A stretch of 64,000 bases of DNA from a virus (taxonomy: Duplodnaviria; Caudoviricetes): the IMG/VR virus record IMGVR_UViG_3300042350_003801; one strand, 5' to 3'. Positions within the stretch are counted from its first letter, which is position 1; every line of letters starts with the position of its first letter. The notes under the pieces are model-generated. The model saw nothing but the letters and a program-made list of their open reading frames with translations. It was not told where the DNA came from and did not search any database. The position numbers and the translations under genes are program-made. Below, piece by piece: positions 892 through 60,622 of this stretch.

Positions 892-998
892 TCTTAATCC
901 ACAATTATTCCTATGGATTATTTAGTCGTGTTTGATAATATTAAAAAGTAAACAACTTACTGCAAAGATTATAAAAATTTCCAGTAGCGATGAGGTCG

Positions 999-1277
999 TC
1001 ATTCTACTGGAAGTTCTTCGGGGTTTTTAATATTCATTTCAAATAGAAGTGGATGGGCTTCTTCTGAAATCAAATAATCGGACCACTTTAACATTTGTTC
1101 AGATTTTATTCCAATCTTTTGATTTGCTTCCGTAAAGATTGTTGGGTCGCTTTTTGCAATTTCTGGAAGAATGTCAAAAGAAAAGGGAATTCCTTCAATG
1201 CAATAAACCTTTACCAACTCATTTGGTGTTTTGGGAACAATAAACCACCGGTAACAGGTGGTTATAGAATATTGCAT
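999..1277 (-). CDS. Hypothetical protein
   Basis: 92-aa ORF co-oriented with neighbours, plausible composition. Confidence 0.6.
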   Translation of the reverse strand: MQYSITTCYRWFIVPKTPNELVKVYCIEGIPFSFDILPEIAKSDPTIFTEANQKIGIKSEQMLKWSDYLISEEAHPLLFEMNIKNPEELPVE

Positions 1278-1418
1278 TTTTGATGCCGCGGCTAACAGTA
1301 TTTATTCATCGTCCTTAATATGCCGACGATTCAAAAATTCCTCAACTATCGAAATTATTTAAAGACCGTTGTAGATAAAAAATGGAAAACTTAGATGAAA
1401 GGTCCAATAAAAACTTCA

Positions 1419-1516
1419 CTAAATAAAGATGCCTGGTTGGTTGGCGCTTTTCAGGTGGGGGAGAATTTCTTCTCCCCTTATAAAATAAAACTTTACTAAA
1501 TAATATTGCCAACCAA
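1419..1516 (+). promoter_or_regulatory. Dual late-promoter/antisense hairpin module upstream of tnpB
   Basis: CTAAATA 1419-1425; stem CCTG/CAGG with loop GTTGGTTGGCG; hairpin GGGGAGAA..TTCTCCCC 1457-1477; second CTAAATA 1496-1502; complement TGCCAACCAAT 1507-1517. Confidence 0.65.
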
Positions 1517-1528
1517 TAAACAGAGCAG

Positions 1529-2725
1529 ATGCATTTAAAAGCATACAAGTTCAGGATTTATCCAGATAAAGAACAAGAAGTTATATTGGCGAAGACTTTC
1601 GGTTGCTGTAGGTTTGTTTGGAACAAACTCGTTGAAAACTTCAACAGTAACTCCAAGGAATTCATAAACGAAAAAACTTTGAAAGACACTCCCGAATTTG
1701 AATTTCTTAAAGAAGTTTCTGCTGCTGCTATTCAACAAAAAAGAAATGACTTTATTGATTTCAAGAAGCAGTTTTTCAATAAGAAAAGAAAGGCCAAATT
1801 AGGACGACCTTCTTTTAAGAAAAAATCAAATCGTCAGTCTTTTAGACTTCCCAATCAGAAGTTCGTTCTAGACCAAGAAAACTCTTTAGTTAGACTTGAA
1901 AAGATTGGTTGGGTTAAAGTTGTCGTTGACCGTGAAATTCCCGAAGATGCTGACTTTAGGAACATCACTGTTTCTAAAACACCAACCGGTAAATACTTTG
2001 TTTCAATTTTAGTTAAGCAAGAACTCAATCCAATACCCTCAACCGGCAAGGTAGTAGGTATTGATTTGGGCATTAAAGACTTGTTCATTCTTTCAAACGG
2101 ACAAGCAATTAACAATCCTAAATGGTTTCGCAAGAACCAAGCGAAACTCAAAAAAGCCCAGAAGCATTTAAGTAGGAAAAAGAAGGGAAGTAATCGTTAC
2201 ATTAAGCAACGAATTAAAGTTGCTAAAGTACACGAATACATTACAAACAGTAGAACTTACTTTCTTCATAACGTGTCTACTGCTTTAGTGAACACTTTTG
2301 ACTTGATAGTTCTTGAAGATTTAAACGTTTCTGGAATGCTGAAGAACCGCAAGTTGTCTAAATCAATCTCGGATGCTTCTTGGTCTACTTTTGTGTCTAT
2401 GCTGGAATACAAGTGTAACTGGTATGGAAAATTGTTGGTTAAAATTAACCGTTTCTTTCCGTCAAGTAAGACTTGTAGTTCTTGTGGTTACAAGAAAGAC
2501 AAAATGCCTCTTTCGGTTAGAGAATGGACTTGTCCATCTTGTGGTTGTCAACACGATAGAGACTTGAATGCCTCTATTAATATTTTAAAGGAAGGTTGGA
2601 GAAATCTAACCGACCGAGAACTTTCATCGGCGGAGTACGTCGATTACGGACGTGGAGCGGAATTAAGACTGAATGGTAATTCACATCATTTAGCATCTGC
2701 TATGAAGCGTCTAGAGAACCAATAG
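1529..2725 (+). CDS. tnpB: RNA-guided endonuclease TnpB (OrfB)
   Basis: N-terminal KAYKFRIYP HTH, RuvC-I GIDLG, RuvC-II IVLEDL, Zn finger CSSC..CPSC, RuvC-III DRDLNASINI; all catalytic acidic residues present. Confidence 0.95.
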   Translation: MHLKAYKFRIYPDKEQEVILAKTFGCCRFVWNKLVENFNSNSKEFINEKTLKDTPEFEFLKEVSAAAIQQKRNDFIDFKKQFFNKKRKAKLGRPSFKKKSNRQSFRLPNQKFVLDQENSLVRLEKIGWVKVVVDREIPEDADFRNITVSKTPTGKYFVSILVKQELNPIPSTGKVVGIDLGIKDLFILSNGQAINNPKWFRKNQAKLKKAQKHLSRKKKGSNRYIKQRIKVAKVHEYITNSRTYFLHNVSTALVNTFDLIVLEDLNVSGMLKNRKLSKSISDASWSTFVSMLEYKCNWYGKLLVKINRFFPSSKTCSSCGYKKDKMPLSVREWTCPSCGCQHDRDLNASINILKEGWRNLTDRELSSAEYVDYGRGAELRLNGNSHHLASAMKRLENQ

Positions 2726-2774
2726 AGTTTTTTGACTTTATTAGTTTTTATTACTATTTAACTGGTTCGGGAAT
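2626..2774 (+). ncRNA. TnpB omegaRNA (reRNA) scaffold plus predicted 20-nt guide (2755-2774, TATTTAACTGGTTCGGGAAT)
   Basis: Overlaps the tnpB 3' end as is typical for omegaRNAs; stems ATCGGCG/CGTCGAT and AATAGAGTT/GACTTTATT; conserved with the copy at 34635-34793 up to TTAC(TAT); true 5' end probably further upstream. Confidence 0.75.
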
Positions 2775-2960
2775 GATAGAATTAGAAAGAATGGCTTCAA
2801 GAACATCATTAATCTTAGAAACCAGTAGAAACATTAAATGCAATGGAAGAAGAATAATAATTCTAAGAATCAGATAATGGTAGCGAATATGAATAGTGTA
2901 GCCGGGAAATTTTTGATACTTTGCTTTCATCTTGTTGTCAATGAACTTAAAGGGATTCAT
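2754..2960 (-). CDS. Small hypothetical membrane protein; stop codon supplied by the TnpB element end
   Basis: 68 aa with hydrophobic stretch; TAG at 2754-2756 straddles the element junction. Confidence 0.6.
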   Translation of the reverse strand: MNPFKFIDNKMKAKYQKFPGYTIHIRYHYLILRIIILLPLHLMFLLVSKINDVLEAILSNSIIPEPVK

Positions 2961-3409
2961 AGTTCCGCTCCACCATATGAATGCAATTGGGGGAGCTTAG
3001 CACTTTCCACAACTTGCCTTAGCCGAAACCTAGTTGCGCGGTCTGGTAGTTTATTTCCATATGCCTGCTCACATTCTTTCTCGTGGTTAAGAAAATTAAC
3101 TAGCATTTCCCACCTTTCTGTGTATGGTTCTAAAAAGATAAGCTCATTAGTGGCGTCTTCTATGCGGTAAGACTTATGAAAAGACCCATATGCGAATGGA
3201 AAATTACTAGCCCAAAGTCTCAAGTCTCCTAGAATTATTGTATAATCACTTTCAATGACAAGCTCGGTATTCGGATCATCTAGAAGTTGATTTATTTTTT
3301 TAGACAATGCTTTAGAAGTTTTATAATTACTAATATAGGCGTTGGGATTGATCCAGTAGAAAAATTTCTCCATTTTGCTGGATTTGATGGTGATGTCGGA
3401 GATTTTCAT
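2957..3409 (-). CDS. Hypothetical protein
   Basis: 150-aa ORF, overlapping start/stop with neighbours. Confidence 0.7.
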   Translation of the reverse strand: MKISDITIKSSKMEKFFYWINPNAYISNYKTSKALSKKINQLLDDPNTELVIESDYTIILGDLRLWASNFPFAYGSFHKSYRIEDATNELIFLEPYTERWEMLVNFLNHEKECEQAYGNKLPDRATRFRLRQVVESAKLPQLHSYGGAEL

Positions 3410-3935: not shown

Positions 3936-4202
3936 AATCAAAGAGTTTCTAGTGCGTGGATTTGGGGTCGTCAGATCATCATTAAGGAAAATTTGTCAGT
4001 CGTCAATGGCAACCCCTTCAACAAGCCAGGAAAGGCGTTGAAACCGAGAAGATGTGAGAGGAACAAGGGATCCTTCTTGTTCAAGGCTGTTCTTGAGCAA
4101 GAAATCAAGAAAAAGTGCCAACCTTTTATAATAATTGCGCTCTTTATCATCCATTTGCTTTTTGGGTGAGTTCATCGGTGGTTGTTAAAGACTCTTATAT
4201 AA

Positions 4203-4227
4203 TACAAGAAATCCCCCAAAAGGGGGA
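4203..4227 (-). terminator. Intrinsic terminator after the NAD operon
   Basis: TCCCCC-TTTT-GGGGGA hairpin followed by ATTTCTT on the minus strand, just after the nadV stop. Confidence 0.6.
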
Positions 4228-4241
4228 ATTTGTGTGCCACT

Positions 4242-5615
4242 TCAGAATGTGACCCTGCTCCTGACGGTTTCAAAGTCTACAAGATTGTGCAACTGTCCAT
4301 TTTCAAAGACAGTTTGAAGAGCGATCGGATAATCCAATGCACCTTCAATATCTGTTACAAAACCATTTTCGGTCTTATAAAGAGTTACACGACCCTTCTT
4401 GGATTCCTTACCGAAATCTGTGATTGGTTGCTTGTAAACATCTCGCCATTCACCATTGACCTTGGCTGCAGAGCATTTCATTGCAAACTTCAAGGTATCC
4501 CTATCCACTTGCTGAAGAAGTCCACCACCTTGACCGAAGGTAATATTATCTGCCGAGAAACCAGCAGTGGTTGCACGATAGAGAATTCGGTCAATTGTTG
4601 CCTGATTGATACCGTCGCCTTGAATAACACTAACATTGTTAAGAACCTTATAGCCCTTATCGTTGATAGTATGCCCGAAGTGTTCGTCAAGAATTCGCAG
4701 ACATTCTGCTACAACTTGTGGAGAGTCGCCGCTGTCTGGTCGAATTCCGACGACTGCACCAGAATTGATAACTTCATCTTTCAACTCTGTTCCCCAGAGT
4801 TTACTACAGGCATCATAGATGTTGTAACTATCGCTAACAACTGCTAGAACTGCTCCAGGTTTACCGAAGAGTTTTAGCATATTGCGATAAGCCTCAACCT
4901 CGTTTTCTCGGCCCCAAGATACCATCGAGCTGTGTTCACTAGCCGGGATAGAGAATCCTGCCATCTTGGCATCATAATACTTTCTTGCATAAAGAAGGGC
5001 TGCTACAGTATCAGTTCCTTTGAAGTTGACAAGATGGGCTGCCCCACCAATGCCAGCAGATTCATAAGAAGAGACACCTCGAAATCCGAAATCTTGCAGC
5101 TTGAAATCAATCAAATCTGGATTACCCGTTTTATGAAGATACTCTAGGATGATTCTCTTACTGGTGTAAGAATTCGTGCAGACTGTCGTTGGATACCATA
5201 CCGCTCGGAGCAATGCCGTCTCCAAGAAAGAACTTAACCACCAGCACTTGGGGTCAGTTGGTTCAATCGTAACAAGAACATTCTTCGTTGGAACAACTGT
5301 TCCTTCTGGAACTGCCTTGATTATAACTGGAAGCCAGCCATTATGCTCTTTGAGAATGTATTCCCAAAGTTCACGGTAGAATGGTTCACCGTGAGCCGTG
5401 ATAATCTCTTCTGCAACATCAATGTCTTCTTGTGTGATCGGTTTGGACATATATTCCTTGAGGAACATCTGTAAACCAAAGAACACAGTTTCATCCCATT
5501 TACCACCTCTACTCTCAATGTAAGAGTAGACGCTTTCAGTTCCAGGAGGATACTGATAAGGTTGGGAATACTTGTAGGAATCAGCGTTGAGAATTAGATT
5601 TTTAAAAAGGTCCAT
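4242..5615 (-). CDS. nadV: Nicotinamide phosphoribosyltransferase (NAMPT)
   Basis: NADSYKYSQ, DFGFRG, IPASEHS, VVSDSY, IRPDSG, IQGDGI, FGQGGGLLQ motifs. Confidence 0.95.
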   Translation of the reverse strand: MDLFKNLILNADSYKYSQPYQYPPGTESVYSYIESRGGKWDETVFFGLQMFLKEYMSKPITQEDIDVAEEIITAHGEPFYRELWEYILKEHNGWLPVIIKAVPEGTVVPTKNVLVTIEPTDPKCWWLSSFLETALLRAVWYPTTVCTNSYTSKRIILEYLHKTGNPDLIDFKLQDFGFRGVSSYESAGIGGAAHLVNFKGTDTVAALLYARKYYDAKMAGFSIPASEHSSMVSWGRENEVEAYRNMLKLFGKPGAVLAVVSDSYNIYDACSKLWGTELKDEVINSGAVVGIRPDSGDSPQVVAECLRILDEHFGHTINDKGYKVLNNVSVIQGDGINQATIDRILYRATTAGFSADNITFGQGGGLLQQVDRDTLKFAMKCSAAKVNGEWRDVYKQPITDFGKESKKGRVTLYKTENGFVTDIEGALDYPIALQTVFENGQLHNLVDFETVRSRVTF

Positions 5616-5697: not shown

Positions 5698-6198
5698 CTA
5701 TGGTTGATACTCTACAACCGTAACCTCTGCAAAGTCTTTAACTCTTTCAGAGAACTCTTCAATCATTTTAGAAATTCTACTCCAATCGCCGCAAGCAAGA
5801 CCAGCGCCAATCATTGGAAATCCGATATTGATTTTGTCTGGATATAACCAAATCGCAGATGTAATAGTAGCTGCATAATTATTCAAAAATTCCCGAAAAG
5901 CATCATATTCAAAGACATCCTTTCCGAGTCCAAAAAAATATTGAGTATATACATTAATAACAATGAATGTAGTTTCACCCACTTCTATATTCACCTCGGT
6001 AGATTTTCCTAATTTTTCTTTATCTCCATATTTGGATTGGGTTTTATCTGCTTCTAATACTTGTGGATATTTACGTGCAAGCTGCCCCGCAAGACCAGAA
6101 GATTGGGTATGAAAGCAATTACACCCCTGCACAATCAGGTCAAACACACCTTGTTCGGCAAGTTTGATTAAGTCTCCTTTAACGATTTTCATAATCAA
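5698..6198 (-). CDS. Macro-domain (ADP-ribose binding/hydrolase) protein
   Basis: VKGDLI, QGCNCFHTQSSGLAGQL, FPMIGAGLACGDW motifs. Confidence 0.9.
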   Translation of the reverse strand: MIMKIVKGDLIKLAEQGVFDLIVQGCNCFHTQSSGLAGQLARKYPQVLEADKTQSKYGDKEKLGKSTEVNIEVGETTFIVINVYTQYFFGLGKDVFEYDAFREFLNNYAATITSAIWLYPDKINIGFPMIGAGLACGDWSRISKMIEEFSERVKDFAEVTVVEYQP

Positions 6199-20234: not shown

Positions 20235-20953
20235 TACGATGCGAAAAAAGATGATAACCCTTCTAGAGTAACAGTGCTTTTAACTTCAGTTTTTGGATTT
20301 GTAATCTCAATTTCGTGAGATAGTTTGGGCATAGTCTCAAAGAACTTCTCAATGCTCTTGAATAGTGAACTATTCATTTGCTCAAGGAAATCCTTCCACT
20401 CTTGTTTAGTACAATCGGAGAAGGCATAAACTTCGTCTTTATCATAAAGTTTATCAATACAATCAACAATTAGGTCAAAAGATTGCTCAGTAGTAATTCC
20501 TTCAAGATCAAAGTTGTTTCTAATAAACTGGTCAAGAGAAGGATACCTGAGTTCAAGAATCATTGAATCGTTGATTTTAATCTTGTTTGAATGTTCAGGA
20601 TTCTTTTTAACCTTAATATCTTCAAGGTCAATTTTGATTTTGACTTCAGTTTCTTCATCGTCTGGACAGAACACCGTTACCTCAACTTCTTCACCAACGG
20701 ACTTTGCGCGAATGTTAAGGAATAGAAACTCAATATCAAAAGTTGGTAGATTTTCTACTTTGATTCCTTTTGTAAGAATGCAATTGGTTAGAATGGTTTT
20801 AATTGCGGTGGTAATCTCTTTATTATCACCAGATTCAAGGGCAAGAAGAAGAAGTTTTTCTTCCTTCACAAGAAATGGTCTAAATTTAATTGCCTTCTCA
20901 GTTGAAGGAAGAATCAGTTCATAAGTGGGAGTAACTAAAAGGGGTAAAGGCAT
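20234..20953 (-). CDS. Baseplate hub subunit (gp26-like)
   Basis: MPLP...PTYEL.LPS...IKFRPFLVKEEK.LL.A.E, FDIEFLFLNIRAKSVGE; CTAAATA late promoter at 20978-20984. Confidence 0.92.
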   Translation of the reverse strand: MPLPLLVTPTYELILPSTEKAIKFRPFLVKEEKLLLLALESGDNKEITTAIKTILTNCILTKGIKVENLPTFDIEFLFLNIRAKSVGEEVEVTVFCPDDEETEVKIKIDLEDIKVKKNPEHSNKIKINDSMILELRYPSLDQFIRNNFDLEGITTEQSFDLIVDCIDKLYDKDEVYAFSDCTKQEWKDFLEQMNSSLFKSIEKFFETMPKLSHEIEITNPKTEVKSTVTLEGLSSFFAS

Positions 20954-20976
20954 AACAAATTAATGGTGTTGTTGAG

Positions 20977-21675
20977 TTATTTAGTACCGTTTCCGACGAT
21001 TCTTGAGCGAACATAACGAATATATGTAAAGTTTACTATACATTTGAGAACAGTTGAACCCTCATAAGAAACTGGCAATGAATCAATAGAAATTGGATAT
21101 GCCTTAACAAAGTTATAATCCATTCTTGTTGCATTAAGAGATGGAGTTCCGGCATTTTTACCAGTATTAATAACCTGACCCATATTCCGCTCAAACTTTG
21201 AAATTGCAATCGTGCCCGCATAATCGTTTCTAAAATTCATTCTATAAGAAGCATTATCGGATAAATATTTTTCTTGACTATCTTCATTTACAATATAATT
21301 CATCCAACCTTCTAAAAACTCAATAATACCGTAATCTTGGTCAACATAAAATGTAAATGAAGATTGGTCATCGTATTGCCTACGATAAACCATCTTCTCA
21401 GTTGCACCAGTGAAGTCACCGGTTACTTCATTTGTAAATAGTGAACTTCCAGGGAGAGTGGCTTCGCTGCAGAGTAATGATAAATCATCCAATATTCCTT
21501 GGCTGAAGCCCTCATATCTATTTACATTTCCAACAAAAGACATTACTTTAGGAGGAGGCTGTATTTTTACCGCAAAATGAGACGTTAAAGCGGGTTGGAG
21601 AAGTTTAAGTTTAAGATTATCAATAGTTTTAAAGTTAACGTCTGGTTTAACTATATTAATGGGCATAAATAACAC
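20977..21675 (-). CDS. Baseplate tail-tube initiator (gp54/gp19 fold)
   Basis: LLCSEATLPG, RQYDD..FTFYVD, AYPISIDS, VNFTY motifs. Confidence 0.75.
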   Translation of the reverse strand: MLFMPINIVKPDVNFKTIDNLKLKLLQPALTSHFAVKIQPPPKVMSFVGNVNRYEGFSQGILDDLSLLCSEATLPGSSLFTNEVTGDFTGATEKMVYRRQYDDQSSFTFYVDQDYGIIEFLEGWMNYIVNEDSQEKYLSDNASYRMNFRNDYAGTIAISKFERNMGQVINTGKNAGTPSLNATRMDYNFVKAYPISIDSLPVSYEGSTVLKCIVNFTYIRYVRSRIVGNGTK

Positions 21676-25148: not shown

Positions 25149-25717
25149 AGATAAAACCGGTCATTATTTGTATTTTGATTCCTTATTGGTGGGTATTCCG
25201 CATTTATAAAATCAATATATGGTGACTGGAGTGCCTGCCTCTCAATAAGTAAATCTTGAAATGCTTCGTTTAGGGAATATCTTATTGGAAATTCATTTAA
25301 ATAAAAAGCGCGAGGTGGCGACTCGGTGATCGTTTTCATATTGTCAAAATCAAACATTGGAACAAACAATAAGGCATTACCGTCGTTCAATAACGTGTGC
25401 ATACCGATAAGTTCCCAAGTGGCATACGTGACGACATTCGCGTGATACGCGACAGGGGTGAAATACCTGGCGGCATCCCTGGCGGCATTCCAGGCGGCAA
25501 AATAGGCGGCATTACTGGCAGCCACCTTGTCTGCATGGTCTAAAGCGTAATAGCGGTGGTTAACTTCTTCACATTGTTCTTGCGTAGGATTATCAATAAA
25601 CCACCAGAAGTTAATGACGGTTTCGTAGTTTGGTCCTAGAAAATTCTGTGGATTTGTTAGGGCTTCGGGATTTTGAAGTTCGTTGGAGAAGTTTTGATGG
25701 GCTTTAGAATAATGCAT
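25139..25717 (-). CDS. AAWDAA-repeat family protein, copy 1 (few repeats, extended C-terminus)
   Basis: [35 protein letters not shown]-terminus and [14 protein letters not shown]-terminus shared with three paralogs; start placed at MHYS. Confidence 0.8.
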   Translation of the reverse strand: MHYSKAHQNFSNELQNPEALTNPQNFLGPNYETVINFWWFIDNPTQEQCEEVNHRYYALDHADKVAASNAAYFAAWNAARDAARYFTPVAYHANVVTYATWELIGMHTLLNDGNALLFVPMFDFDNMKTITESPPRAFYLNEFPIRYSLNEAFQDLLIERQALQSPYIDFINAEYPPIRNQNTNNDRFYLQE

Positions 25718-25796: not shown

Positions 25797-26744
25797 TCAG
25801 CCGTCTGCTAGGGCCATAAAGCGTTGTAGGTCTTCATCTTCTTCATCTTCGGCAATTGCTGCTTTTGAATTAGAATAAGAAGTCTCAAGTTCAGCAAGAA
25901 TATCCTCTTTTGGATTGAGAAGTTCTTCAAGGTCTTTTTCCTGCTCTTCAACTGAAGGAGCAGACGTTGCTGGACGGGAGTTAGTCACAGCAGAAAGACG
26001 CTTTTCAAGTTCTTCGTAAGACTTGAACTTTTCGGGAGCAACGATTGCTTGTAGTGAGTGTAGTTGTTCATACACAGTTTCAAGTTTATCATCATCACCA
26101 CCCAAAAACTCCGTCTGAGATTCAAATTTGCTGTCATCGTAATTGGGCATACTGCGCTCTTTACCACCAATAATAGTTTTGATGGTTTTAGAAATAAGAC
26201 GGAAGTTAGCACCTTCCCAAAAATCAAAGGGTTGAATAACTGGGTCACCCTCAAATTCGGGCTTCATTGCAGCAACAATCTTGTCAAAGATTTTCTGTCC
26301 GAATCGGAAGATTTTGACAGTCCCTTCTACTGAAGGATCTGCAGGATTGCTCACCACATAAACATTGGCATAATATGAAAGTTTACGTTTCCTGTCGCGG
26401 GCAACGTTCTTATCAGAGTCGTTTCCGCTATTCCAAAGTGCGCTGTTAGAGGTGCAAATCGAGCACTGTTCGCCTAGAGTAGTCGGGCAGTTTTCAATAA
26501 GCCACTTACCATTCACCTGGAAGCCGTGATTATAGAGCCTTACGAATGGGGCGTCTTCACCGCCGGGAGCGGGTAGAAAACGTAGAATTGCACGACCATT
26601 ACCAGCCTTATCCGTTTCAAGTTTGAAAACGTTAAGGTCGTCGGAATATGAACCGCTATTCAGTTTTTCGGCTTCCTTCAGAAGTTTTTCTGTAAGAGCA
26701 CCGATACCTGACTTGCTCTGCTTTTTAAGTTGTTTGAAATCCAT
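25797..26744 (-). CDS. Single-stranded DNA-binding protein (gp32-like)
   Basis: DKAGNG.AILRFLP, IENCPTTLG..C..C, KIFDKI, FDFWEGANF, acidic tail. Confidence 0.95.
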   Translation of the reverse strand: MDFKQLKKQSKSGIGALTEKLLKEAEKLNSGSYSDDLNVFKLETDKAGNGRAILRFLPAPGGEDAPFVRLYNHGFQVNGKWLIENCPTTLGEQCSICTSNSALWNSGNDSDKNVARDRKRKLSYYANVYVVSNPADPSVEGTVKIFRFGQKIFDKIVAAMKPEFEGDPVIQPFDFWEGANFRLISKTIKTIIGGKERSMPNYDDSKFESQTEFLGGDDDKLETVYEQLHSLQAIVAPEKFKSYEELEKRLSAVTNSRPATSAPSVEEQEKDLEELLNPKEDILAELETSYSNSKAAIAEDEEDEDLQRFMALADG

Positions 26745-26822
26745 AGTGCGTTAAATTGCGTTAAATGTTTGTGTTTGCGTTTTGGAAACTTTTTGAAATC
26801 AACGGTTTGCCAACCAATTTAT

Positions 26823-27563
26823 TTAGAAGAGTGTGTCTAGGGCATTTGGAACGGGAGTTTTGTTTATTCTCTCGGAGCCAAGTTTGAAATACTCCCCATC
26901 TAATTCAATACCAATAAATCCTCTTCCCGTCTTCTTTGTCGCAACACCGGTAGTGCCACTACCAAAGCAATTATCTAAAACTACATCGTTTTCATTTGTG
27001 TAGGTCTTAATAAGATATTCCATTAAAGGAACTGGCTTTTGAGTTGGGTGTAATCCCTTTTCCTGTTTAAATTGAAGAACAGTTTTAGGATATCTTGTTC
27101 CTTCTGGGTTATCTCTATGTTTGGAATCTAGGTCACCATACACTTCACCCAACTTCTTCTGTTTTGATTTAAACCCACCATAAGGAGTAGAGATTGTCAT
27201 CTGTGGGTTATACTTCGGCCTCTTTCTATAAAAGACAACGATGTTTTCGTGAGCTTTTAATGGTTGTATCTTGGCAACCATTGGGTTTGTACCCTGTGGC
27301 TTTTCCCATATCCATTCATATCTAAAGTTTTTTAGATTAGATGAAATAAGAGAAGTGGTAAAAGGTTGAGATGCAGTGAATACCATTGCGGCATCTTCTT
27401 TTGCAATCCGGTTGTATTGCTCCCATAGCGGCTCAAATGGAATAAGAATATCAAACTTTGCGGCAGTTATTTCATAAGGAAGGTCAGCAAGAATCATATC
27501 AACTGAATCATCTGGAATAGTCTTCATTATTTCGAGACAGTCACCCTGATAAAGTTCAATCAA
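26823..27563 (-). CDS. DNA N4-C/N6-A methyltransferase (beta class)
   Basis: DMILADLPY catalytic motif N-terminal, HPTQKP, VLDNCFGSGTT SAM-binding motif C-terminal. Confidence 0.93.
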   Translation of the reverse strand: MIELYQGDCLEIMKTIPDDSVDMILADLPYEITAAKFDILIPFEPLWEQYNRIAKEDAAMVFTASQPFTTSLISSNLKNFRYEWIWEKPQGTNPMVAKIQPLKAHENIVVFYRKRPKYNPQMTISTPYGGFKSKQKKLGEVYGDLDSKHRDNPEGTRYPKTVLQFKQEKGLHPTQKPVPLMEYLIKTYTNENDVVLDNCFGSGTTGVATKKTGRGFIGIELDGEYFKLGSERINKTPVPNALDTLF

Positions 27564-28143
27564 TCGTAATTACCTCCGGTTGAATATTTGATACTTCTAG
27601 ATTTATTGTAGTCCAGAGTTGTCCACTTAAAGATTGTTGAATTACGGCTTGGTATCTATCAGTTTTACAGAACCAGCCACTTTGTTTTCCCATCTTTGAA
27701 TATTTCGGTTGCCAGTCGGCCTCTGAGTAGTTGAGAATATTGGTATCAAAAGAGAATAGGTAGTATTCTTTTCTTTCTGCTTTCCTTGTACTTGTTGCAA
27801 GACAGACATATGCATCTTCTTGCTTATCGGAAAAGAACTTTAGCTTTTGCCTAAGAGTTTTATATTCTCCACTTCTTGAACCACTAATTTGTAGGGTATT
27901 GTTGGTTGGGCTATATTTTCCACTCTTATTTGAAATCTTAATGGTTCTTCCTTCAATCGTGCAGATTTGATCTTTTCCTACAGAATGAGAGCGATCTGGC
28001 CTCCAATCTGAATAACCTTCAATATCTTCAATGGACTTTGCAAATATCTCTTCCCAGTATTCGGCAATAACTGGTAGTTCGTAAAGTTTATGGTGTTCTC
28101 TTATTCTATATTCAATTCTGGTTTTTAAATCATTGTCTATCAA
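27556..28143 (-). CDS. Putative PD-(D/E)xK restriction endonuclease
   Basis: EYWEE...D..HSVGKD...ISNKSG pattern compatible with a PD-(D/E)xK core; overlaps the MTase start by 8 nt. Confidence 0.5.
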   Translation of the reverse strand: MIDNDLKTRIEYRIREHHKLYELPVIAEYWEEIFAKSIEDIEGYSDWRPDRSHSVGKDQICTIEGRTIKISNKSGKYSPTNNTLQISGSRSGEYKTLRQKLKFFSDKQEDAYVCLATSTRKAERKEYYLFSFDTNILNYSEADWQPKYSKMGKQSGWFCKTDRYQAVIQQSLSGQLWTTINLEVSNIQPEVITID

Positions 28144-29500: not shown

Positions 29501-30204
29501 TGATTATCGGTGATAAATTTGTTGATATATTTTCTAAGAAGTTTGACATATTTTTGAAGGTCTTTCTCGATGTAAACCTCAACTTCTCCGTTTTGACAAG
29601 ACATAATAATCACAAGTTGTTTTGGCATTACACCAAATCGTTCAGCATACATATAGGCATATGAAAAACACTGAACAAAATAACCTTCAATCCACTCTAA
29701 TTTTTTGGGCTCCACAGAAGTCTTATGGTCAATAACACTAAGAACTCCATCAAACTCTGCAATCATATCTGGAGTTCCAGCAAGTTCCCAATCAAAAGAA
29801 TAAAGAGGAACCTCAATTGTATGAATCTTTCCAATTCTATTGAAGGTAGAAAGAGCATTGTTGAATAAAAACTTAGCGAGGGCAGACTTTTCAGGAATGT
29901 CTTCGTTTTTAAAGTATGACTCAGAAAGAGCGTGATATTGAGTTCCTAGGGTTGTTGCAAACTTGATGACACGTTTTGCCTCATCTTCACCAACTCTTTC
30001 TCTCCATTCGGCAATCTTCTCTTTAGAGTAATTAGAAGTAACTGATGTAACGGAGATAAAAGTTTTATAGTCTTCAAAATCTGGAACTTTATAATACCGG
30101 TTGCCGTCTAGCGTCACTCTTTCTATTTTTGGGATATTTAAATCTAGATGTTCAAATAACGGACGTTTGATTTTATTTATTTTTTGTTTTAGGGTGATAC
30201 CCAT
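29497..30204 (-). CDS. PD-(D/E)xK exonuclease (cyanophage exonuclease, Cas4-like fold)
   Basis: SVTSV, W..RVGE.EA, GT.YH, AGT.D..AEFDG..SVID.KTS. Confidence 0.88.
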   Translation of the reverse strand: MGITLKQKINKIKRPLFEHLDLNIPKIERVTLDGNRYYKVPDFEDYKTFISVTSVTSNYSKEKIAEWRERVGEDEAKRVIKFATTLGTQYHALSESYFKNEDIPEKSALAKFLFNNALSTFNRIGKIHTIEVPLYSFDWELAGTPDMIAEFDGVLSVIDHKTSVEPKKLEWIEGYFVQCFSYAYMYAERFGVMPKQLVIIMSCQNGEVEVYIEKDLQKYVKLLRKYINKFITDNQ

Positions 30205-30253
30205 TTTTCCTCGCTCTGGAGTGGTAACACCCTAGCACATCTTCTCGAATTTG

Positions 30254-31015
30254 TCAAGTGGTCGCGGTTTCCTGCTCGTATTCGTGTTCCGCAATTAGGA
30301 AGCTGCGAACCAAACCTGAGCGGATCACATCTTCAATGCCAAACTGAACCAAATCAAATTCTTCCATTCGTTCAAGAACTTTAGCAAAATCAAGAAAACC
30401 TTTACGTTCGCTCATTTTTGTCAAGTCCGATTGCTTAGAATCACCGGCAAAGAAGATTTTACTATCTTGACCAACACGAGTAATAACCGTTGATAGATGA
30501 TGATAGTTAAGGTTCTGGCACTCATCTACAATAAGTATGCAGTTATCATAAGTTGTTCCTCTAAGAAAAGATACACACATAAAGTCTAGAACTTTTTCGG
30601 CCTTAAGTAGACCATATAGCATTTCAAAATCTTCTTCTGTTGGCAAGTCAAACATAGACTTTACCATATGTTTGTATGGAGATTCAAATGGTGCAATCTT
30701 ATCGCTGACATTACCTGGAACAAAACCAATTTCAAGGGATTGAACAGTTGAACGCACAATGATAATTTTATCATAAGGTGTTCTTTCATTAAGAACATCT
30801 TTAAGGGCATTGTATAATAGAACGTGTGTTTTACCGGTTCCAGGAGAACCATAAGCCAGAATATTTTGTCCTCTTTCGTATGAATCAAAAAGTTTAGCCT
30901 GGTTATCAGTTAGTGGATGCATTTTATGCAATACATCTAAACTGATTGTTCTTTTATTTCTCTTTGGTGCCCTATTGTAGCCTTGTGCGTCTGCGGTCCG
31001 TCTTTTACGAGTCAT
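30254..31015 (-). CDS. phoH: PhoH family ATPase
   Basis: G.PGTGKT, IIVRS, IGF.PG, SFLRG.T, VDECQNL, TRVG, GD..QSDL. Confidence 0.93.
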   Translation of the reverse strand: MTRKRRTADAQGYNRAPKRNKRTISLDVLHKMHPLTDNQAKLFDSYERGQNILAYGSPGTGKTHVLLYNALKDVLNERTPYDKIIIVRSTVQSLEIGFVPGNVSDKIAPFESPYKHMVKSMFDLPTEEDFEMLYGLLKAEKVLDFMCVSFLRGTTYDNCILIVDECQNLNYHHLSTVITRVGQDSKIFFAGDSKQSDLTKMSERKGFLDFAKVLERMEEFDLVQFGIEDVIRSGLVRSFLIAEHEYEQETATT

Positions 31016-34013: not shown

Positions 34014-34585
34014 ACTCTATTCCCCCATTGAATCTCGGGAAATGCTTCTTTAACAACATCGAAGGAAATGTTATACTTTTCTTGTAGCTTTTTATCTGTT
34101 ACAAAACAAATAATTTCAGCCTCACGAGGATGTAGACCTTGTAGCAGATTGATGAACATTGTTTCTCGGCGAATTTTAGATAATTCTGCATTTCCACCGT
34201 GAATGAAGTTTCGGAAATTATTATATTCCTTGCGAATAGTTGTTCGGTTATTACTACCATAAGAATCTAACATCTCAGTAGTCTTTAGTTGCTTATTCAT
34301 ACTATCTGAAAAGGTTGTATCATTTCCAACAACACCAATTTCCCTGGCATCGGCAAATGGAACATCCCCCGAGGGAACTGCCGAAACTAAGCTCGGGTCA
34401 TAATTCCAAATGAATACTGCCATCATAGATGGGTCCTTATATTCTTGAAGAACTTCTACTTTTTTGGCATTAGAACGTTGTTTTACAACAAGGTCAAAAA
34501 CTTCAAATAAAAAGGGATTGGCTGGAAGTTTTTTAGGCGTAGTCACCTTCGTCGTCTTCGTCTGTGTCGTCATAATTTTGATCAA
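34010..34585 (-). CDS. Conserved T4-like cyanophage protein; likely start MTTQ lies inside the duplicated segment
   Basis: LPANPFLFEV, RRETMFINLLQGLHP.EAE motifs. Confidence 0.8.
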   Translation of the reverse strand: MIKIMTTQTKTTKVTTPKKLPANPFLFEVFDLVVKQRSNAKKVEVLQEYKDPSMMAVFIWNYDPSLVSAVPSGDVPFADAREIGVVGNDTTFSDSMNKQLKTTEMLDSYGSNNRTTIRKEYNNFRNFIHGGNAELSKIRRETMFINLLQGLHPREAEIICFVTDKKLQEKYNISFDVVKEAFPEIQWGNRV

Positions 34586-34634
34586 ATGTTACTGCGTAAA
34601 GTATGTCTGGTTTGATAGGCCCGTCGCTATTATA
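34533..34634 (-). repeat. Diverged duplicate (old 3' end) of ORF 34839-35060; its first 20 nt are the guide of the orphan omegaRNA
   Basis: Encodes YNSDGPIKPDILYAVTFDQNYDDTDEDDEGDYA* versus YNYDGSIKPDILYAVTFDQNYDDTDEEDYEDA* at 34839-34937. Confidence 0.9.
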
Positions 34635-34793
34635 GTAACAAAAACCAATAAGAGCCAAAAACTCTATTGATTTTATAGACGCTTCATAGCAGATGCTAAA
34701 TGGTAAATAACCTTTTTAGTCTTAATTCCGCTCCACGTCCGTAATCGGTGTACTCCACCGATACCCGAAAAGTATTAACTAGCCGAGCGTCTT
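34615..34793 (-). ncRNA. Orphan (protein-free) TnpB omegaRNA with guide TATAATAGCGACGGGCCTAT
   Basis: Shares CGATTACGGACGTGGAGCGGAATTAAGACT and CATTTAGCATCTGCTATGAAGCGTCTA exactly with 2640-2713; compensatory stem changes; own ATAAATA promoter at 34794-34800. Confidence 0.85.
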
Positions 34794-34838
34794 TATTTAT
34801 CTAACTTTTGTTTGTGGATAACTGAAAATACTCTATTC

Positions 34839-35060
34839 TCAGGCGTCCTCATAATCTTCTTCGTCTGTGTCGTCATAATTTTGGTCAAAAGTTACTGCAT
34901 AAAGGATATCTGGTTTGATAGACCCGTCGTAGTTATACATCTCAGGGTGAAGTCTAGGAGCCGGGGGATAAAACTTGGATGCTATAAATCCAATAATACC
35001 ACCGAGCATTAAAAAGCAAAGAACTAGTAGAACAGTTAGAGCAGTTAGTAGGCTGAACAT
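34839..35060 (-). CDS. Small membrane protein with recoded 3' end
   Basis: N-terminal hydrophobic helix, acidic tail; last 33 codons duplicated downstream. Confidence 0.8.
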   Translation of the reverse strand: MFSLLTALTVLLVLCFLMLGGIIGFIASKFYPPAPRLHPEMYNYDGSIKPDILYAVTFDQNYDDTDEEDYEDA

Positions 35061-38650: not shown

Positions 38651-40434
38651 AGTTGGTAATAATCGTCTTTTGGCTTGCTCTTTTGAAGTTTAATGAAATC
38701 TTCCGCCCGGTCGTATGAACGAAAAAATATCCTGTGCGGCGGAAAACTGGTTTCCCAATAATCCCAGTACACAAAAAAACGTTTATACTGTGGAACATAA
38801 ATGGTTAAGCCTTCTATGTCTGTTGTTTTTTTGATTCTGTGACTCATTTTTTGGGTTGCGTTTTTTGGAGGGTATAATCTTTTGCTTTTAAAGCATTCCG
38901 TTTAATATATTTTTCCATATCAATTTTATCTTTAAACCAACAAGTCTTCTTTTCGCCCCTATCTGAATGTTGCAGCTCAAATGGAAAGCTCAGATGAAAA
39001 GGCTTTGCATTCGGCTGTTCAACTGGTAGCGGGGCATTTGCAGGAGGATTTACCTTTGTTGTTGCATTGAGATTTCTACGCTTTTTTGCCACTTTCTCGT
39101 CCTGCTTCAAATGCTGCTTTTAACCAAGATAGAAAAACTCTCTCGGCTTCCTTCTTTTGCAGTTCGTCACCATCTTTTAAATAATGGTCACAATCTCCGA
39201 AAAACCTTTCACTCTTAAGAGAGAAATATTCAAGATAATAAAACCATTCGTCAAATGTGCTTTTTGTTTCCATTATCAACCCTCAAAGTCTTTAAATAAT
39301 TTTGATAACGGAGAAATTTTTGAATCGTTGGTTCTACCCCTAGACTCTCACAACAAAAAGTGTAACTAAGGAACTCGAACCAGGGGGCAGTGGAATCAAA
39401 ATCACTCATCATCTTCTTCTTCAGGTTTAAGGTCATAGTAGCACATATCTTCTTCATATCGGTGAAAAATACTACTACACGCCTCAACAAACGAATTTGA
39501 GATTTTCATAACATTCTCGTGACTGTCCTCAAAGTTATTCGTCAAAGAATCAATAAAATCTTCAGAAGGAATTTTAGCAAACAAAAGAGTAAGGGCGGCA
39601 ATCAAATAACCACCAATCCAATGGGCAGGAGAAACATCTCTCATAACTAAGATTCTATCAAAAGTGCTCGGCTCATCTTCTTCTAATTCTTCATCCTCAC
39701 TATAATATGCGATTCTCTGCATTCCGCAGAGCCATACTAATTCCATCATTAGATAGTTTTGCCCGTCGCTATCCAATGGCAATAAGTCTTCTTTTGTTGG
39801 AACCTTTCCACACTGCAAAACCTTAATAATCTCATCTGGAACATCTTCCAGTTCAATGTCTTCATAAAGAGCAGAATCCAGATTATAGCGGCTTTGTAAA
39901 CATTCAATAAACTCAACGGTAAATTCTGATGTGGATTCACTTTCAGCCTTAAGAGAGGCAACCATACTATTCAGTTGGGTAAAATCAAGTTCTTCAGTCA
40001 CAGTTTTGGTTCCTCACTTTTTTTAACATTTTTGACAAGTTCTCTGATAAGGAGACGGTATTCAATTTCCATTCTTAGACGGACTAATGGATTTTTTGGA
40101 TGATTATTCATCAACCACCATAAACCAGCAATCTTAACCCCGAGAAATTTAAGATTAAGAATAATGTATTCGGCAAACCTCGGTTCTATGTAAAGAAGGT
40201 AAAACAAGAAGCCAAAAAAGATTATAAGAGTTTGAAAATAAAGATTCATTTTTTGTGGAGTTTAATTGTTTGCTCTGGGCCAATTTGGACTGGACAATTG
40301 GGAACCGCTTTTCGGAGTTCACGAAAAATATGAACTTTTTGTTTAAGTGATAAGTTAGCAGATTTAACTAATCTTTCAGAAATGTCCACAAGTTGATTGC
40401 AAGTAAGAGTAGTTACAAGTATAAAAGGAAGCAT
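38647..40434 (-). other. Cluster of small hypothetical ORFs (38647-38847, 38844-39110, 39076-39279, 39402-40001, 39998-40249, 40246-40434)
   Basis: Overlapping start/stop chain on the minus strand. Confidence 0.65.
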
Positions 40435-41226: not shown

Positions 41227-41470
41227 CTTTAAGTTCGGTAATTTCTTCCTGAATCCGACAATGGAGTTCTTTTAGTTGAGTTGTAGAAACATCATAGTCG
41301 TCAAACTCATTATACTTTTTAATTGACTTAATTGCCACGGAAAGGCAATAATCAAGATTTTGGAGGTCGTTCAAATTAAGATTCATAGTTCTTTCTTAAT
41401 GAAGAGTTGATGGTTACACCCTACTAGATTTCGCTGGGTTGTGGGTATTTAGTGGACGGTTTGGGTACTG

Positions 41471-42001
41471 TCACAAGTCGTTAAAAAGAGGAACGAACAA
41501 CAAAGTCTTACCGTCGTTCAATAAGGTATGCATACCAATTAGTTCATAAGTGGCATCACTGGCGGCATCCCAGGCGGCATCCCAGGCGGCATCCCAGGCG
41601 GCATCCCAGGCGGCATTCCCGGCGGCATCCCTGGCGGCATCCCAGGCGGCATTCCCGGCGGCATCCCTGGCGGCATCCCAGGCGGCATTCCCGGCGGCAT
41701 CCCTGGCGGCATCCCAGGCGGCATTCCCGGCGGCATATCCGGCGGCATATCCGGCGGCAGCCCCGGCGGCAGCCCCGGCGGCATTCCGGGCGGCAGACCA
41801 GGCGGCATTCCCGGCGGCGGAATCTAGGGCGCGGTAGCGGCGGGCAACCTCTTCCCATTGGTCAGCGGTAAGACTATCCATAAACCGCCAGAAGTTCAAG
41901 ACGGTTTCGTAGTTTGGTCCTAGAAAGTCTTGTGGGTTAGTAAGAACTTCTGGATTTTCTAGTTCGTTGGCGAAATTTTGATGGGCTTTGGAGTAATTCA
42001 T
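41471..42001 (-). CDS. AAWDAA-repeat family protein, copy 2 (longest repeat tract)
   Basis: Conserved ends; about 22 units of 12-nt GCCGCC(T/A/G)GG(G/A/T)AT at about 41550-41820. Confidence 0.85.
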
Positions 42002-48579: not shown

Positions 48580-49368
48580 TTATATTGTCTTCCAGGACTC
48601 CCTATATATTCCGGTTGAATCTGCTTCCAGCATAGACTTTCCGAACCACAGTTTAGGTGCAACAGTCTTTTTGCTATTTGCCAAATAACTTCCCCACCAC
48701 GAAAAAGAAGAGTTGCAGATAATATGATAAGAACACATACTCTGCAGACATAAATCAACCGCTGTTGTATTATTTTCCGAAATCAAAAATCTATCAACCC
48801 CAAAGAGTTCCTGTTCATAGCACCATTGATGGTCATCCGAAAATACAATAACAGGTAAAGAAGAGTCAAAATGCTTCAAGGCATCTTCATAATAAGACAT
48901 TGGCTGAAGAGGGTGGTTAGGATTATTAACATAGTCACACCTTCGGATGTGTAAAGAGATGTATTCTTCATTGCCTAGAAGATTTCTACAAAGACCTTGA
49001 ATTTCTTCAGAGAACGTAAAGTCTTTTCTAATTTCCTCTTCAATATGTTTGAAGTAGTTCTCGTTTTGAAAGTAGCCAAGAAGATTGGTATTATCTGGGC
49101 AATTGTCAAACAGATTTTGGTCAAAGTTAAATGTTGACTCAGTAACCGTTTGATAATCAGTGATACTATATTTTACTCCGCTAAATTGAAAAGTGTTGTA
49201 AATATTGGCATCAGAGTGTCTGACGTTTAAATCAGTTTGTCCTGCAACATTTGGAGATGGAATACAAAAGTCAAATCCTCTATTTCTTGCAATACCCCTA
49301 AGAGATGCATACTGAAACATCTGATTGCCGAGTCTTCCAAGATTTGCTAAATTGTTAAATGAAATCAT
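48580..49368 (-). CDS. Glycosyltransferase family 11 (alpha-1,2-fucosyltransferase-like)
   Basis: GRLGNQMFQYA, GYFQ, SLHIRRCDY, FSDD, NSSFSWWG. Confidence 0.92.
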   Translation of the reverse strand: MISFNNLANLGRLGNQMFQYASLRGIARNRGFDFCIPSPNVAGQTDLNVRHSDANIYNTFQFSGVKYSITDYQTVTESTFNFDQNLFDNCPDNTNLLGYFQNENYFKHIEEEIRKDFTFSEEIQGLCRNLLGNEEYISLHIRRCDYVNNPNHPLQPMSYYEDALKHFDSSLPVIVFSDDHQWCYEQELFGVDRFLISENNTTAVDLCLQSMCSYHIICNSSFSWWGSYLANSKKTVAPKLWFGKSMLEADSTGIYRESWKTI

Positions 49369-49808
49369 AAGTCGTTAAAAAGAGGAACAAACAATAAGTC
49401 CTTACCATCGTCCAAAAGCGTGTGCATACAAATTAATTCATAAGTTGCATCACTGGCGGCATCCCTGGCGGCAAACCCGGCGGTGTCCCTGGCGGCATCA
49501 CTGGCGGCATCACTGGCCGCCCGCCAGGCGGCCGTGGCGGCAGCATCAGCGTCAGCTCCGGCGGCATCCCAGGCGGCATCCCAGGCGGCATTCCAGGCGG
49601 CATCCCTGGCGGCAACCCTGGCGGCAAGGGCTAGGGCACGGTAACGGCGAGCAACTTCATTCCATTGGTGTCTCGTAAGACCGTCCATATACAACCAGAA
49701 ATTCAGGACGGTTTCGTAGTTTGGTCCTAAAAAGTCTTGTGGATTTGTTGGGGCTTCAAGGTTTTGAAGGCGGTTGGAGAACTTTTGATGGGCTTTTGAG
49801 TGATTCAT
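49365..49808 (-). CDS. AAWDAA-repeat family protein, copy 3
   Basis: Conserved ends plus GC-rich 12-nt repeat tract at about 49450-49625. Confidence 0.85.
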
Positions 49809-50927: not shown

Positions 50928-51548
50928 TCATAAGTATTCGGGTGGGTCATATGGTTCCTGGAACATTTCTCGGGAGCGCATTTTTATTGCTCTTTGAGTT
51001 ATTGCATCTATAGAGGAATCTTCAACAAATCTGATTGCTAAAAGAAGTTCCCCTTCTTGTATTGTATTTAGTTCGGGATGACTGCTACTCTTAAATGGAA
51101 TCCAACTTGAACTAAAAATCATTTTTTGTTGAAGAACATCTCCATTGGGTCTATTCCGGTTTTTAAAATTGCACAAGCTCTTTTATAAAACTGACAATCT
51201 GTTTTTCCAGATTCTTCTAAAACGTCTTTAATCTTTTGCCAGTTTTGGCGGGTATGGTCATCCATTTGATTAGTGCATTGAGTTAATTTTATCTTCATAT
51301 TCTTGAAAAATATTCATTTCCCAATAATCAAACTCCTCGTGAATTTTATATACTGCATCCTTGTATGCTTTTTCAGTAAGACAACCAGGATTTTGATAGA
51401 GGACTTTCAGTTGTTCAAGAGCATTTTGAAGGCCTTGAATATATTCAAAACGATATTTGCGGTCATTATATTGCTCTAAGGTCTCGGTTACCCCATCTGG
51501 GTATTGAAACGTTTCTGTTTGAGAATTAAATGTAATTTGGTCAGTCAT
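50928..51548 (-). other. Two small hypothetical ORFs (50928-51176, 51270-51548)
   Basis: ORF track, co-oriented. Confidence 0.6.
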
Positions 51549-51943
51549 AAGTCGTTAAAAAGAGGAACAAACAATAAGTCCTTACCATCGTCCAAAAGCG
51601 TGTGCATACCCATTAGTTCATAAGTGGCATACCCGGCGGCATTCCAGGCGGCATTCCTGGCGGCATTCCTGGCGGCATTCCAGGCGGCATACCCGGCGGC
51701 AGACATGGCGGCAGACATGGCGGCAGCCCCGGCGGCAGACCCGGCGGCAGACCTGGCGGCATCGTCTAGGGCATGATAACGGCGGGCAACTTCATTCCAT
51801 TGGTTCTCGGTAAGACCATCAATAAACCACCAGAAGTTAATGACGGTTTCGTAGTTTGGTCCTAGAAAATTCTGTGGATTTGTTAGGGCTTCAGGGTTTT
51901 GAAGGCCGTTGGAGAAGTTTTGATGTGCTTTAGAATAATGCAT
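51545..51943 (-). CDS. AAWDAA-repeat family protein, copy 4 (start moved to MHYS)
   Basis: Conserved ends; repeat tract about 51630-51762; promoter (TG-C-TATTGT at 51968-51976) lies inside the longer ORF-track call. Confidence 0.85.
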
Positions 51944-58691: not shown

Positions 58692-58764
58692 CGACCAATA
58701 GGAGATTTGAACTCCTGTAACCTACTAGACAGGTAGGTGTCCTAGACCACTAGACGAATTGGCC
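58692..58764 (-). tRNA. trnD: tRNA-Asp(GUC)
   Basis: Acceptor GGCCAAT/ATTGGTC+G73; anticodon stem CCTAC/GTAGG with loop CTGTCTA; T-loop TTCAAAT. Confidence 0.9.
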
Positions 58765-60437: not shown

Positions 60438-60504
60438 TCACCCGTTAAGAATAGCACAAAACCACAAGAACGGGGAAAACGTGTGTCAGTTCGTCAATTG
60501 TCAC

Positions 60505-60526: not shown

Positions 60527-60622
60527 AGTCAACTCAACAACAGGAAACAGTTGGGCGCTTATCCCCAACTCATTAAGAATAACACAAAACCACCAAAACG
60601 GGGAAAGCGTGTGCCAGTTTGA

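Follow-up and report, generated by a model that had tools for sequence, protein, structure and literature searches.

The window analysed here, by which we mean the whole 64,000-nucleotide (nt) stretch of IMG/VR record IMGVR_UViG_3300042350_003801, carries a mobile element of 1,433 bp at positions 1322-2754, interrupting a small phage gene of the opposite strand within its final codons. The block consists of four parts: 81 nt from an earlier home, a conserved left end, an intact ISDra2-like tnpB gene and an omegaRNA scaffold. It is a non-autonomous element of the IS200/IS605 family, of the IS1341 type that holds tnpB only. We propose that such an element may home, guided by its own RNA, into uninterrupted alleles of co-infecting phages. 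Our confidence in the anatomy is high, on the homing function we consider the case evenly balanced, and the explanation as a whole, anatomy together with homing mechanism, is one that we narrowly favour. Judged by sequence, the window is T4-like cyanomyovirus DNA, from a source contig of about 250 kb; among phages it best matches Synechococcus and Prochlorococcus myoviruses (66-72% identity), and near-identical sequence is present in several lake-water metagenomes. The features of the locus, with the evidence for each, are as follows.

1306-1321, minus strand: displaced last codons of the target gene (..IKDDE, stop TAA at 1306-1308); alignment with contigs L131 and L132 extends to 1321.
1322-1379, plus strand: carried flank part 1, the spare 3' end of another phage gene; matches to contig L171 and to window 39328-39288.
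1380-1402, plus strand: carried flank part 2, 23 nt from a neighbouring phage gene (coding PFHLSFPF) in inverted orientation; match to L171.
1403-1528, plus strand: left end common to all copies; 10-copy alignment.
1529-2725, plus strand: tnpB, 398 amino acids (aa), ISDra2-like; Pfam, PDB alignment, and the ratio of nonsynonymous to synonymous divergence (dN/dS).
2620-2754, plus strand: omegaRNA scaffold, overlapping the last 35 tnpB codons and ending TTAC; nine-copy alignment, covariance model, drop in dS.
2755-2777, plus strand: target-derived TAT (2755-2757) and guide; TAT is present unduplicated in the native allele.
2754-2960, minus strand: target gene cut to 68 aa, its stop TAG formed at the junction; open reading frame (ORF) list, relatives of 74-75 aa.
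39254-39409, minus strand: resident copy of the gene whose spare tail is carried; sequence matches.

The borders were determined from comparisons of filled and empty alleles, for which L131 and L132 served at the studied site, contigs L026-L033 at a second locus of the window, and G003, a complete relative of 249,820 bp with direct terminal repeats, at a site that is filled in contig L005. A homologue search with the truncated 68-aa ORF returned full-length proteins of 74-75 aa, 93% and 81% identical (P0024 and P0025), which terminate PVK-YVKEDK and PVK-YVKGDK respectively. Contigs L131 and L132 hold the neighbouring genes in matching order and tnpB is absent from both. L131 aligns to window 944-1321 and 2755-3064, the two alignments meeting on a single base, and L132 does likewise, so that the insert is 1322-2754 with a one-base T ambiguity. 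When the window's own flanks are rejoined they end PVK-YIKDDE before the stop, colinear with the relatives. As had been recognised from the window itself, the element supplies the TAG that ends ORF 2754-2960 (minus strand), from the C of TTAC and the TA of TAT.

The initial annotation of this DNA had drawn the left border elsewhere, taking 1398-2754 as the element, TTAGATG|TAT as the empty site and AGATG as a target-adjacent motif (TAM) common with the second locus. AGATG does occur at 1393-1397 and before the target of the orphan copy at that second locus (34942-34938), and joining 1397 to 2755 gives an open frame ending TAA. However, the left homology of both empty alleles stops at 1321, which places the junction at 1321/1322, 76 bases to the left of 1397|1398; comparison with related phages lacking the element was the check that the annotation itself had named as able to overturn its left junction, and it did so. 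The predicted restored end, PVK-Y-I, also differs from what was found, since the native proteins end YVKEDK or YVKGDK and the window's flank gives YIKDDE. Furthermore, AGATG at 1393-1397 sits within the 23-nt inverted fragment at 1380-1402, a perfect inverted copy of another phage gene, and shares bases with the spare tail's TAG stop; what had been read as a motif was thus brought in with foreign phage DNA. The native bases before TAT at the studied site are TTAA(T/C)A, other sites show TA or TG there and not AGATG, and five sites share only T-R. The likeness to the second locus is coincidence, and a border at 1397 with an AGATG motif is scarcely tenable. The correction matters in practice, as AGATG would misdirect cleavage assays. 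The idea that the insertion spares its host gene proved half right: the opposite-strand gene of 74-75 aa loses its last 6-7 codons, leaving 68 aa, and the spare gene end carried by the element comes from a different gene and brings no rescue here.

No target-site duplication was found. The flanks abut in the empty alleles, with a 1-base overlap at the studied site and 0-2 bases at the L005 site. A 2-bp crossover or TA duplication, of the serine recombinase or Tc1-like kind, was considered and rejected because the native and filled alleles are equal in base number here. The L005 element, missing from G003, provides the third filled/empty pair: the native site reads ..GGTTTTTG|TATAATGAC, and in the filled allele 47 private nt precede the left-end core, while the right end reads TTAC|TATAATG. 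A fourth clean pair was sought at the L008, L003 and L015 sites, where only distant or one-sided matches were obtained. For the studied site, a search through the neighbouring 150-aa gene yielded no relatives in IMG/VR, and one through NAMPT gave only relatives at most 67% identical. Contig L126 shows the gene order without the element, but its junction is too diverged to serve as an empty allele. One joint reported in a metagenome, from 1366 to 2626, has unknown letters between its two sides and probably reflects repeat copies.

The 81 nt before the conserved left end (1322-1402) are private to the studied copy and absent from the empty alleles. Positions 1328-1379 (52 nt) are 92% identical (E 1e-16) to 2508-2559 of L171, where a small gene of this 90%-related phage has its 3' end, and 41 nt of the carried flank are 88% identical to window 39328-39288. 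Read in the frame of the source gene, 1323-1391 gives PTIQKFLNYRNYLKTVVDKKWKT and then the stop TAG at 1392-1394, while the resident gene ends PKIQKFLNYQNYLKTVVNKDGNKKHI before its stop in L171 and PTIQKFLRYQNYLKTLRVDNGNKKHI in the window. Positions 1380-1402 match L171 2855-2833 on the opposite strand at 100% identity (E 6e-9) and window 38979-38999 at 90%; their source in L171 is a coding fragment about 275 nt beyond the source of the first part. The change of strand falls within a 21-nt imperfect inverted repeat. The simplest reading of these matches is that the studied cassette formerly lay in another gene and moved together with its left neighbourhood. Should this be true, the foreign spare tail, which is useless at its present location, would be direct evidence of a cassette jump between genes. 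The inverted repeat itself (GTTGTA..ATGGAAAC) is found at L171 2546-2567 and 2833-2872 and at about 39265-39290 and 38960-39000 of the window, lying on either side of a 67-aa gene and the beginning of the gene that follows.

The left end shared by the copies (1403-1528) contains a core, TCCAATAAAAAC, and two ACTAAATAA motifs (1418-1426 and 1495-1503). A hairpin in which 1458-1465 pairs with 1470-1477 covaries among copies, with compensatory changes in 3 of its 8 pairs; no separate DNA hairpin was identified near the right tip. Homology among copies at different sites begins near 1403-1410, and in the studied copy and others the native left flank is separated from the conserved left end by 47-120 nt of unrelated DNA. 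We considered a common extended left end and rejected it, as against shuffle controls only L006 and L008, which share a site, are similar to the left of the core. For the L005 filler a search for its origin found no homologue. The left borders vary both ways, with extra DNA here and at L005 and a shorter end in L003, in which a primase gene runs to the ACTAAATAA motif. A target-primed reverse-transcription model for the variable left ends was set aside on strand polarity, by reasoning only. Two remnants were noted in addition. L169 (G001:35092-35138, minus strand) is a 47-nt right-end remnant ending TTAC|TAT, with the left-end core CTTTACTAAATAG 15 nt later; this order, right end before left end, is the one expected from a circle junction or a tandem copy. 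L170 (G001:56405-56515, minus strand) is a lone left-end remnant that retains the hairpin and the two ACTAAATA motifs; the ORF after it is unrelated and stands in place of tnpB.

At the other border, right flanks start with TA at all 12 independent sites and with TAT at 11 of them (TTAC|TAT), while the frequency of TAT in the window is 0.022. The placing of the scaffold's end at TTAC (2751-2754) in the initial annotation was borne out, with the right junction exactly there in three filled/empty comparisons and the native target beginning TAT. Conservation among copies had suggested TTACTAT as the element's end; this was dropped because TAT is native, and unduplicated, in all three empty sites, and both ways of parsing the end are kept in what follows. 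The two bases before TAT were reconstructed at five sites and are TA at the studied site and TG at the orphan, at L005 and at two positions in the clamp-loader gene gp44. The filled/empty pairs give TA|TAT, TG|TAT and TG|TAT, and the spare and old tails of gp44 give TG|TAT and TG|TA. Common to the sites is T-R|T-A-T.

Two readings of this end fit the sites. In the first, the scaffold ends TTAC, the guide starts UAU at 2755 and only T-R is shared upstream. In the second, which we tentatively favour, T[G/A]TAT would be the motif, the scaffold would end ..TTACTAT and the guide would start at 2758. This second motif has the T-N-N-A-T shape of ISDra2's TTGAT, and the element's self junction, ACTAT, would escape cutting; it requires a 2-nt slip at the left of the studied site and two transitions at the L005 site. 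From these comparisons the motif is likely T[G/A]TAT, and AATAT at 1317-1321 may be a retained copy of it.

The 398-aa ORF matches the Pfam families HTH_OrfB_IS605, OrfB_IS605 and Cas12f1-like_TNB (E 9e-18, 5e-27 and 4e-27), and its residues 4-356 are homologous to ISDra2 TnpB in a PDB alignment (8bf8_A, E 3e-74). In that alignment the catalytic residues D179, E263 and D345 line up with D191, E278 and D361 of ISDra2 TnpB, and a CxxC..CxxC zinc finger is made up of C316, C319, C335 and C338. The earlier call of a catalytically intact TnpB was correct, with the RuvC D-E-D triad and the zinc finger both present; TldR proteins have lost RuvC catalytic residues, and all three are retained here. Relatives of the protein with 80-91% aa identity are found at differing genomic sites in IMG/VR phage contigs. 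Against five other copies dN/dS over codons 1-360 is 0.04-0.11, at a dS of 0.9-3.5 that is near saturation, indicating that the TnpB protein is kept by strong purifying selection. Over the last ~38 codons, where the gene overlaps the scaffold, dS falls to 0.1-0.8, which points to a second constraint there at the nucleotide level. From its sequence TnpB looks active. Close relatives (99-100%) all carry the element at the identical place, as they would if it were a dead passenger whose similarities are merely inherited. An inert relic is nevertheless very improbable given the low dN/dS over saturated synonymous divergence, the catalytic residues that are all kept, the RNA-level constraint on the scaffold and the independent copies of the element at more than 10 sites in related phage contigs.

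A structured omegaRNA is predicted to overlap the 3' end of tnpB and to continue into the right flank, and its fold is retained in the protein-free copy described below. The fold predicted from the nine-copy alignment consists of a stem-loop and a long bipartite helix, with 30 pairs of which 2 show compensatory changes. A covariance model built from this alignment gave 26 matches among the retrieved loci, and in an Rfam search the scaffold was covered by no family. The empty alleles match the guide without interruption over positions 1-14, with mismatches at 15, 17 and 18 in L131 and at 15 and 20 in L132. A guide taken from the right flank is supported, and a 14-nt match in empty alleles fits the layout that would be expected for RNA-guided homing. 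Contig L175 has, 2.3 kb past its tnpB on the downstream side, a second scaffold match (5942-6071, 65 bits) that ends TGAC|TAT and may represent a further copy of the guide-only kind.

The second locus of the window holds such a guide-only copy, the orphan, with the following features.

34635-34818, minus strand: protein-free mini-element, in which a left-end remnant (34818-34763) is joined directly to an omegaRNA scaffold (34762-34635, ending TTAC); homology, covariance model.
34839-34937, minus strand: spare 3' end of the 73-aa gene 34839-35060 (YNYDGS...EEDYEDA, then stop); 83-nt direct repeat, 88% identical.
34533-34634, minus strand: original 3' end of the 73-aa gene, now the orphan's guide; it runs into native downstream sequence as in L033.

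The scaffold at this locus (34635-34768, minus strand) is 86% identical to 2626-2757 and scores 140 bits with the covariance model; tnpB is absent, and about 55 nt of the left end are retained in the 10-copy alignment. The copy is a PATE-like deletion derivative, a known kind (PMC10055086). Seven related contigs without the orphan, among L026-L033, have a single gene end reading GAGATG|TATAA. The observation in the initial annotation that AGATG precedes the target here was accurate, GAGATG at 34943-34938 (minus strand) standing before TAT as it does in the seven empty relatives. The downstream copy of the gene end, past the scaffold, is the original and the upstream copy is the import, in which the last 8 codons differ; compared with the orphan's guide the spare end has four mismatches, at positions 6, 7, 8 and 16. 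The stretch 34533-34634 includes the start (ATG 34573-34571) of the next gene, which encodes a DUF6433 protein (Pfam), and since that gene starts inside the duplicated stretch the duplication leaves both genes whole. A spare-tail layout like the orphan's is also present in gp44 of contigs L001, L002 and L007, and loose metagenome contig ends indicate the same layout in the studied phage's own genome. Flank duplication was not found in full-length copies at 7 loci; it was seen only at the orphan and gp44. The window thus combines one nuclease gene with a single guide-only copy, as a system of two parts.

Guides that match conserved genes of relatives might also suit a weapon, with TnpB and its guides cutting rival phage genomes (or host DNA) for exclusion without the element being copied in, and phage homing endonucleases are known for nuclease-mediated exclusion (PMC13565253). 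We think this improbable. Members of the element family occupy numerous different sites across related phages and take the guide at each from the local flank, which bespeaks spread of the element itself, and in most database relatives the bases nearest the motif already differ from the orphan's guide.

No TnpA lies nearby, as first reported. The flanking ORFs have no Pfam match, and the search of window ORFs gave no strong Y1_Tnp or Resolvase match: for the 63 ORFs of 90-300 aa, neither was among the best 25 of 41 Pfam families. A tblastn search of the window with a related phage's 197-aa serine TnpA was negative. In the complete relative G003 a six-frame hidden Markov model search found no Y1 transposase, and control genomes scored as expected. 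G003 carries four TnpB-family genes, and its only serine recombinase, also present on the L033 contig and not in the window, belongs to a separate IS607-like unit. IS605 proper has a Y1 HUH TnpA within the element, and here only 126 nt run from the conserved left end to tnpB. Neither does a serine TnpA adjoin tnpB, as in IS607, and the window's sole group I intron match (59814-60014) is far from the element, which sets it apart from an IStron. On the IS200/IS605 trait of a fixed left end directly 3' of a conserved 4-5-nt TAM the sites point both ways: they share T-R|T-A-T, yet the unrelated 47-120 nt intervene. In G003, island L167 (G003:20000-32500) holds the IS607-like unit, made up of a 197-aa serine recombinase with a MerR-type helix-turn-helix domain (20737-21330) and a TnpB of at least 469 aa, and also TnpBs of 377 aa (26449-27582) and 399 aa (29677-30876). 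L033, a 90% relative of the window, has this same serine recombinase 1.5 kb from the orphan's empty site.

These searches bear on the possibility that the element is an ordinary non-autonomous insertion sequence, moved by a Y1 TnpA from the cyanobacterial host or from elsewhere in the phage through single-strand peel-and-paste beside T[G/A]TAT. TnpB would then merely restore excised copies, with no phage-to-phage homing, and the odd left flanks would mark surrogate upstream cleavage sites. For about 75% of tnpB genes no tnpA lies close by, and their movement is believed to happen in trans (PMC10055086); the conserved left-end hairpin, the exact right end and the absence of a target duplication all agree with this explanation. 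The spare tail at the orphan and gp44 also begins right after TGTAT, as if cleavage had used the motif. Set against these points, no Y1 transposase was found in the complete relative or detected in the window, and a lytic T4-like phage leaves little time for host transposition. Moreover, in available relatives GTAGA, and not the motif, precedes the flank carried by the studied copy, and the left borders differ at every site. Taken together we regard movement as an ordinary insertion sequence as unlikely.

Under the homing explanation that we favour, TnpB with its omegaRNA would cut the uninterrupted allele in a co-infecting related phage beside the probable motif T[G/A]TAT. The break would be mended from the element-bearing genome by the phage's recombination-dependent replication, and the element would be copied in with no transposase, its own junction ACTAT avoiding the cut. 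The protein-free copy at 34635-34818 would use the TnpB protein in trans. Moves to new sites, which would be rare, would preserve the right end precisely (TTAC|TAT) but not the left, and left-flank DNA would be dragged along as a result. A new site slightly upstream in the same gene would duplicate the tail, giving the spare and old versions found at the orphan and gp44; a new site elsewhere would leave a useless fossil tail, as in the studied copy. A broader generalisation is offered tentatively, and we consider it doubtful: phage TnpB cassettes might be self-sufficient RNA-guided gene drives that need no transposase, home into co-infecting relatives and occasionally relocate, exactly at the guide-RNA end and sloppily at the other, thereby creating spare-tail rescue modules.

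Several observations weigh against the homing explanation. Contigs of four lake metagenomes gave only the filled allele with these flanks and no empty-allele joint. No RNA sequencing run was listed as containing the sequence, a negative that is uninformative. Both known empty alleles of the studied site read CATAT and not TATAT, and alleles of the L131/L132 type may not be cut. The motif was inferred from five sites only, and with a scaffold ending in TTAC the shared upstream part shrinks to T-R, which would be a short motif for a TnpB. To the left of the L008 insertion the remainder of the target gene is absent, which suggests that some copies involve replacement and not clean insertion. Left-imprecise relocation is something we infer from anatomy alone, and a host-encoded TnpA acting in trans is a live alternative.

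TnpB is the ancestor of Cas12, and its proven role is to prevent loss of the transposon after excision by TnpA. Natural TnpB-driven spread between viruses without a transposase, if true, would make RNA-guided homing a complete mobility mechanism. The closest characterised system is ISDra2 TnpB with its right-element RNA (reRNA), or omegaRNA (Karvelis 2021, PMC8612924; PDB 8BF8, 8EXA and 8H1J). Both have the same D-E-D triad and zinc finger, a scaffold that overlaps the 3' end of the gene and a guide from the right flank, and the inferred T[G/A]TAT shares its T-N-N-A-T shape with TTGAT (PMC13565253). Unlike ISDra2, the phage element has no tnpA in cis and lies in a lytic-type T4-like cyanophage and not in a bacterial chromosome, its left border is unfixed relative to the motif and bears foreign flank DNA, and native TAT adjoins its right end. 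The combination of tnpB-only copies with a protein-free copy that keeps the ends and the omegaRNA resembles IS1341-group and PATE-like elements (Meers et al. 2023, PMC10055086), which include guide-only forms dependent on TnpB supplied in trans (PMC10055086). For those elements a genomic TnpA acting in trans is the presumed mover, whereas the complete related phage has none.

TnpB-driven, TnpA-independent spread of IS605 has been shown for plasmids (PMC11870625; PMC13565253), and 'non-restorative homing' into co-infecting phages has been raised as a theoretical possibility only (PMC13565253). The logic here is the same as on plasmids, namely that the empty orthologous site is cut and the filled copy serves as template for its repair; the phage case is natural anatomy consistent with homing and not a demonstration of it. 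Resemblance to the free-standing homing endonucleases of T-even phages, SegF, SegB and Mob, with their 'intronless homing' and flank co-conversion, is also apparent. These too are selfish nuclease units between or within conserved phage genes, with self-immunity through sequence differences in a nearby gene and flank DNA that travels along (PMC13565253). They target by protein-DNA recognition, unlike the RNA guide here, which is itself the displaced gene end. Full-text literature searches found no description of TnpB cassettes with carried gene tails in T4-like cyanophages. Already known are the biochemistry of ISDra2 TnpB, tnpB-only and guide-only elements, TnpA-independent plasmid spread and theoretical phage homing (PMC13565253, PMC10055086, PMC11870625). 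New are the corrected borders, the T-R|T-A-T consensus, the evidence of selection and the fossil tail pointing to movement between genes, which suggests that cassettes travel between genes together with rescue modules. The locus offers exact borders, natural empty alleles and a motif prediction, T[G/A]TAT as opposed to AGATG.

Several other features of the window were noted. Among its ORFs of 90-300 aa, Pfam matches to SegE-type GIY-YIG, PD-(D/E)XK and TnsA-like endonuclease domains indicate that the phage also bears classical protein homing-endonuclease-like genes. Rfam matches are the group I intron at 59814-60014 (minus strand, 66 bits) and a tRNA at 58692-58764 (minus strand). Four paralogous gene segments are 63-83% identical (25352-25699, 41434-41983, 49364-49790 and 51544-51925), and a run of 12-nt periodic repeats is contained in one of them, at 41434-41820. 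A 52-nt intergenic repeat occurs at 60440-60491, 60568-60619 and 4191-4242, the first two copies being 87% identical, and may be a promoter or regulatory motif.

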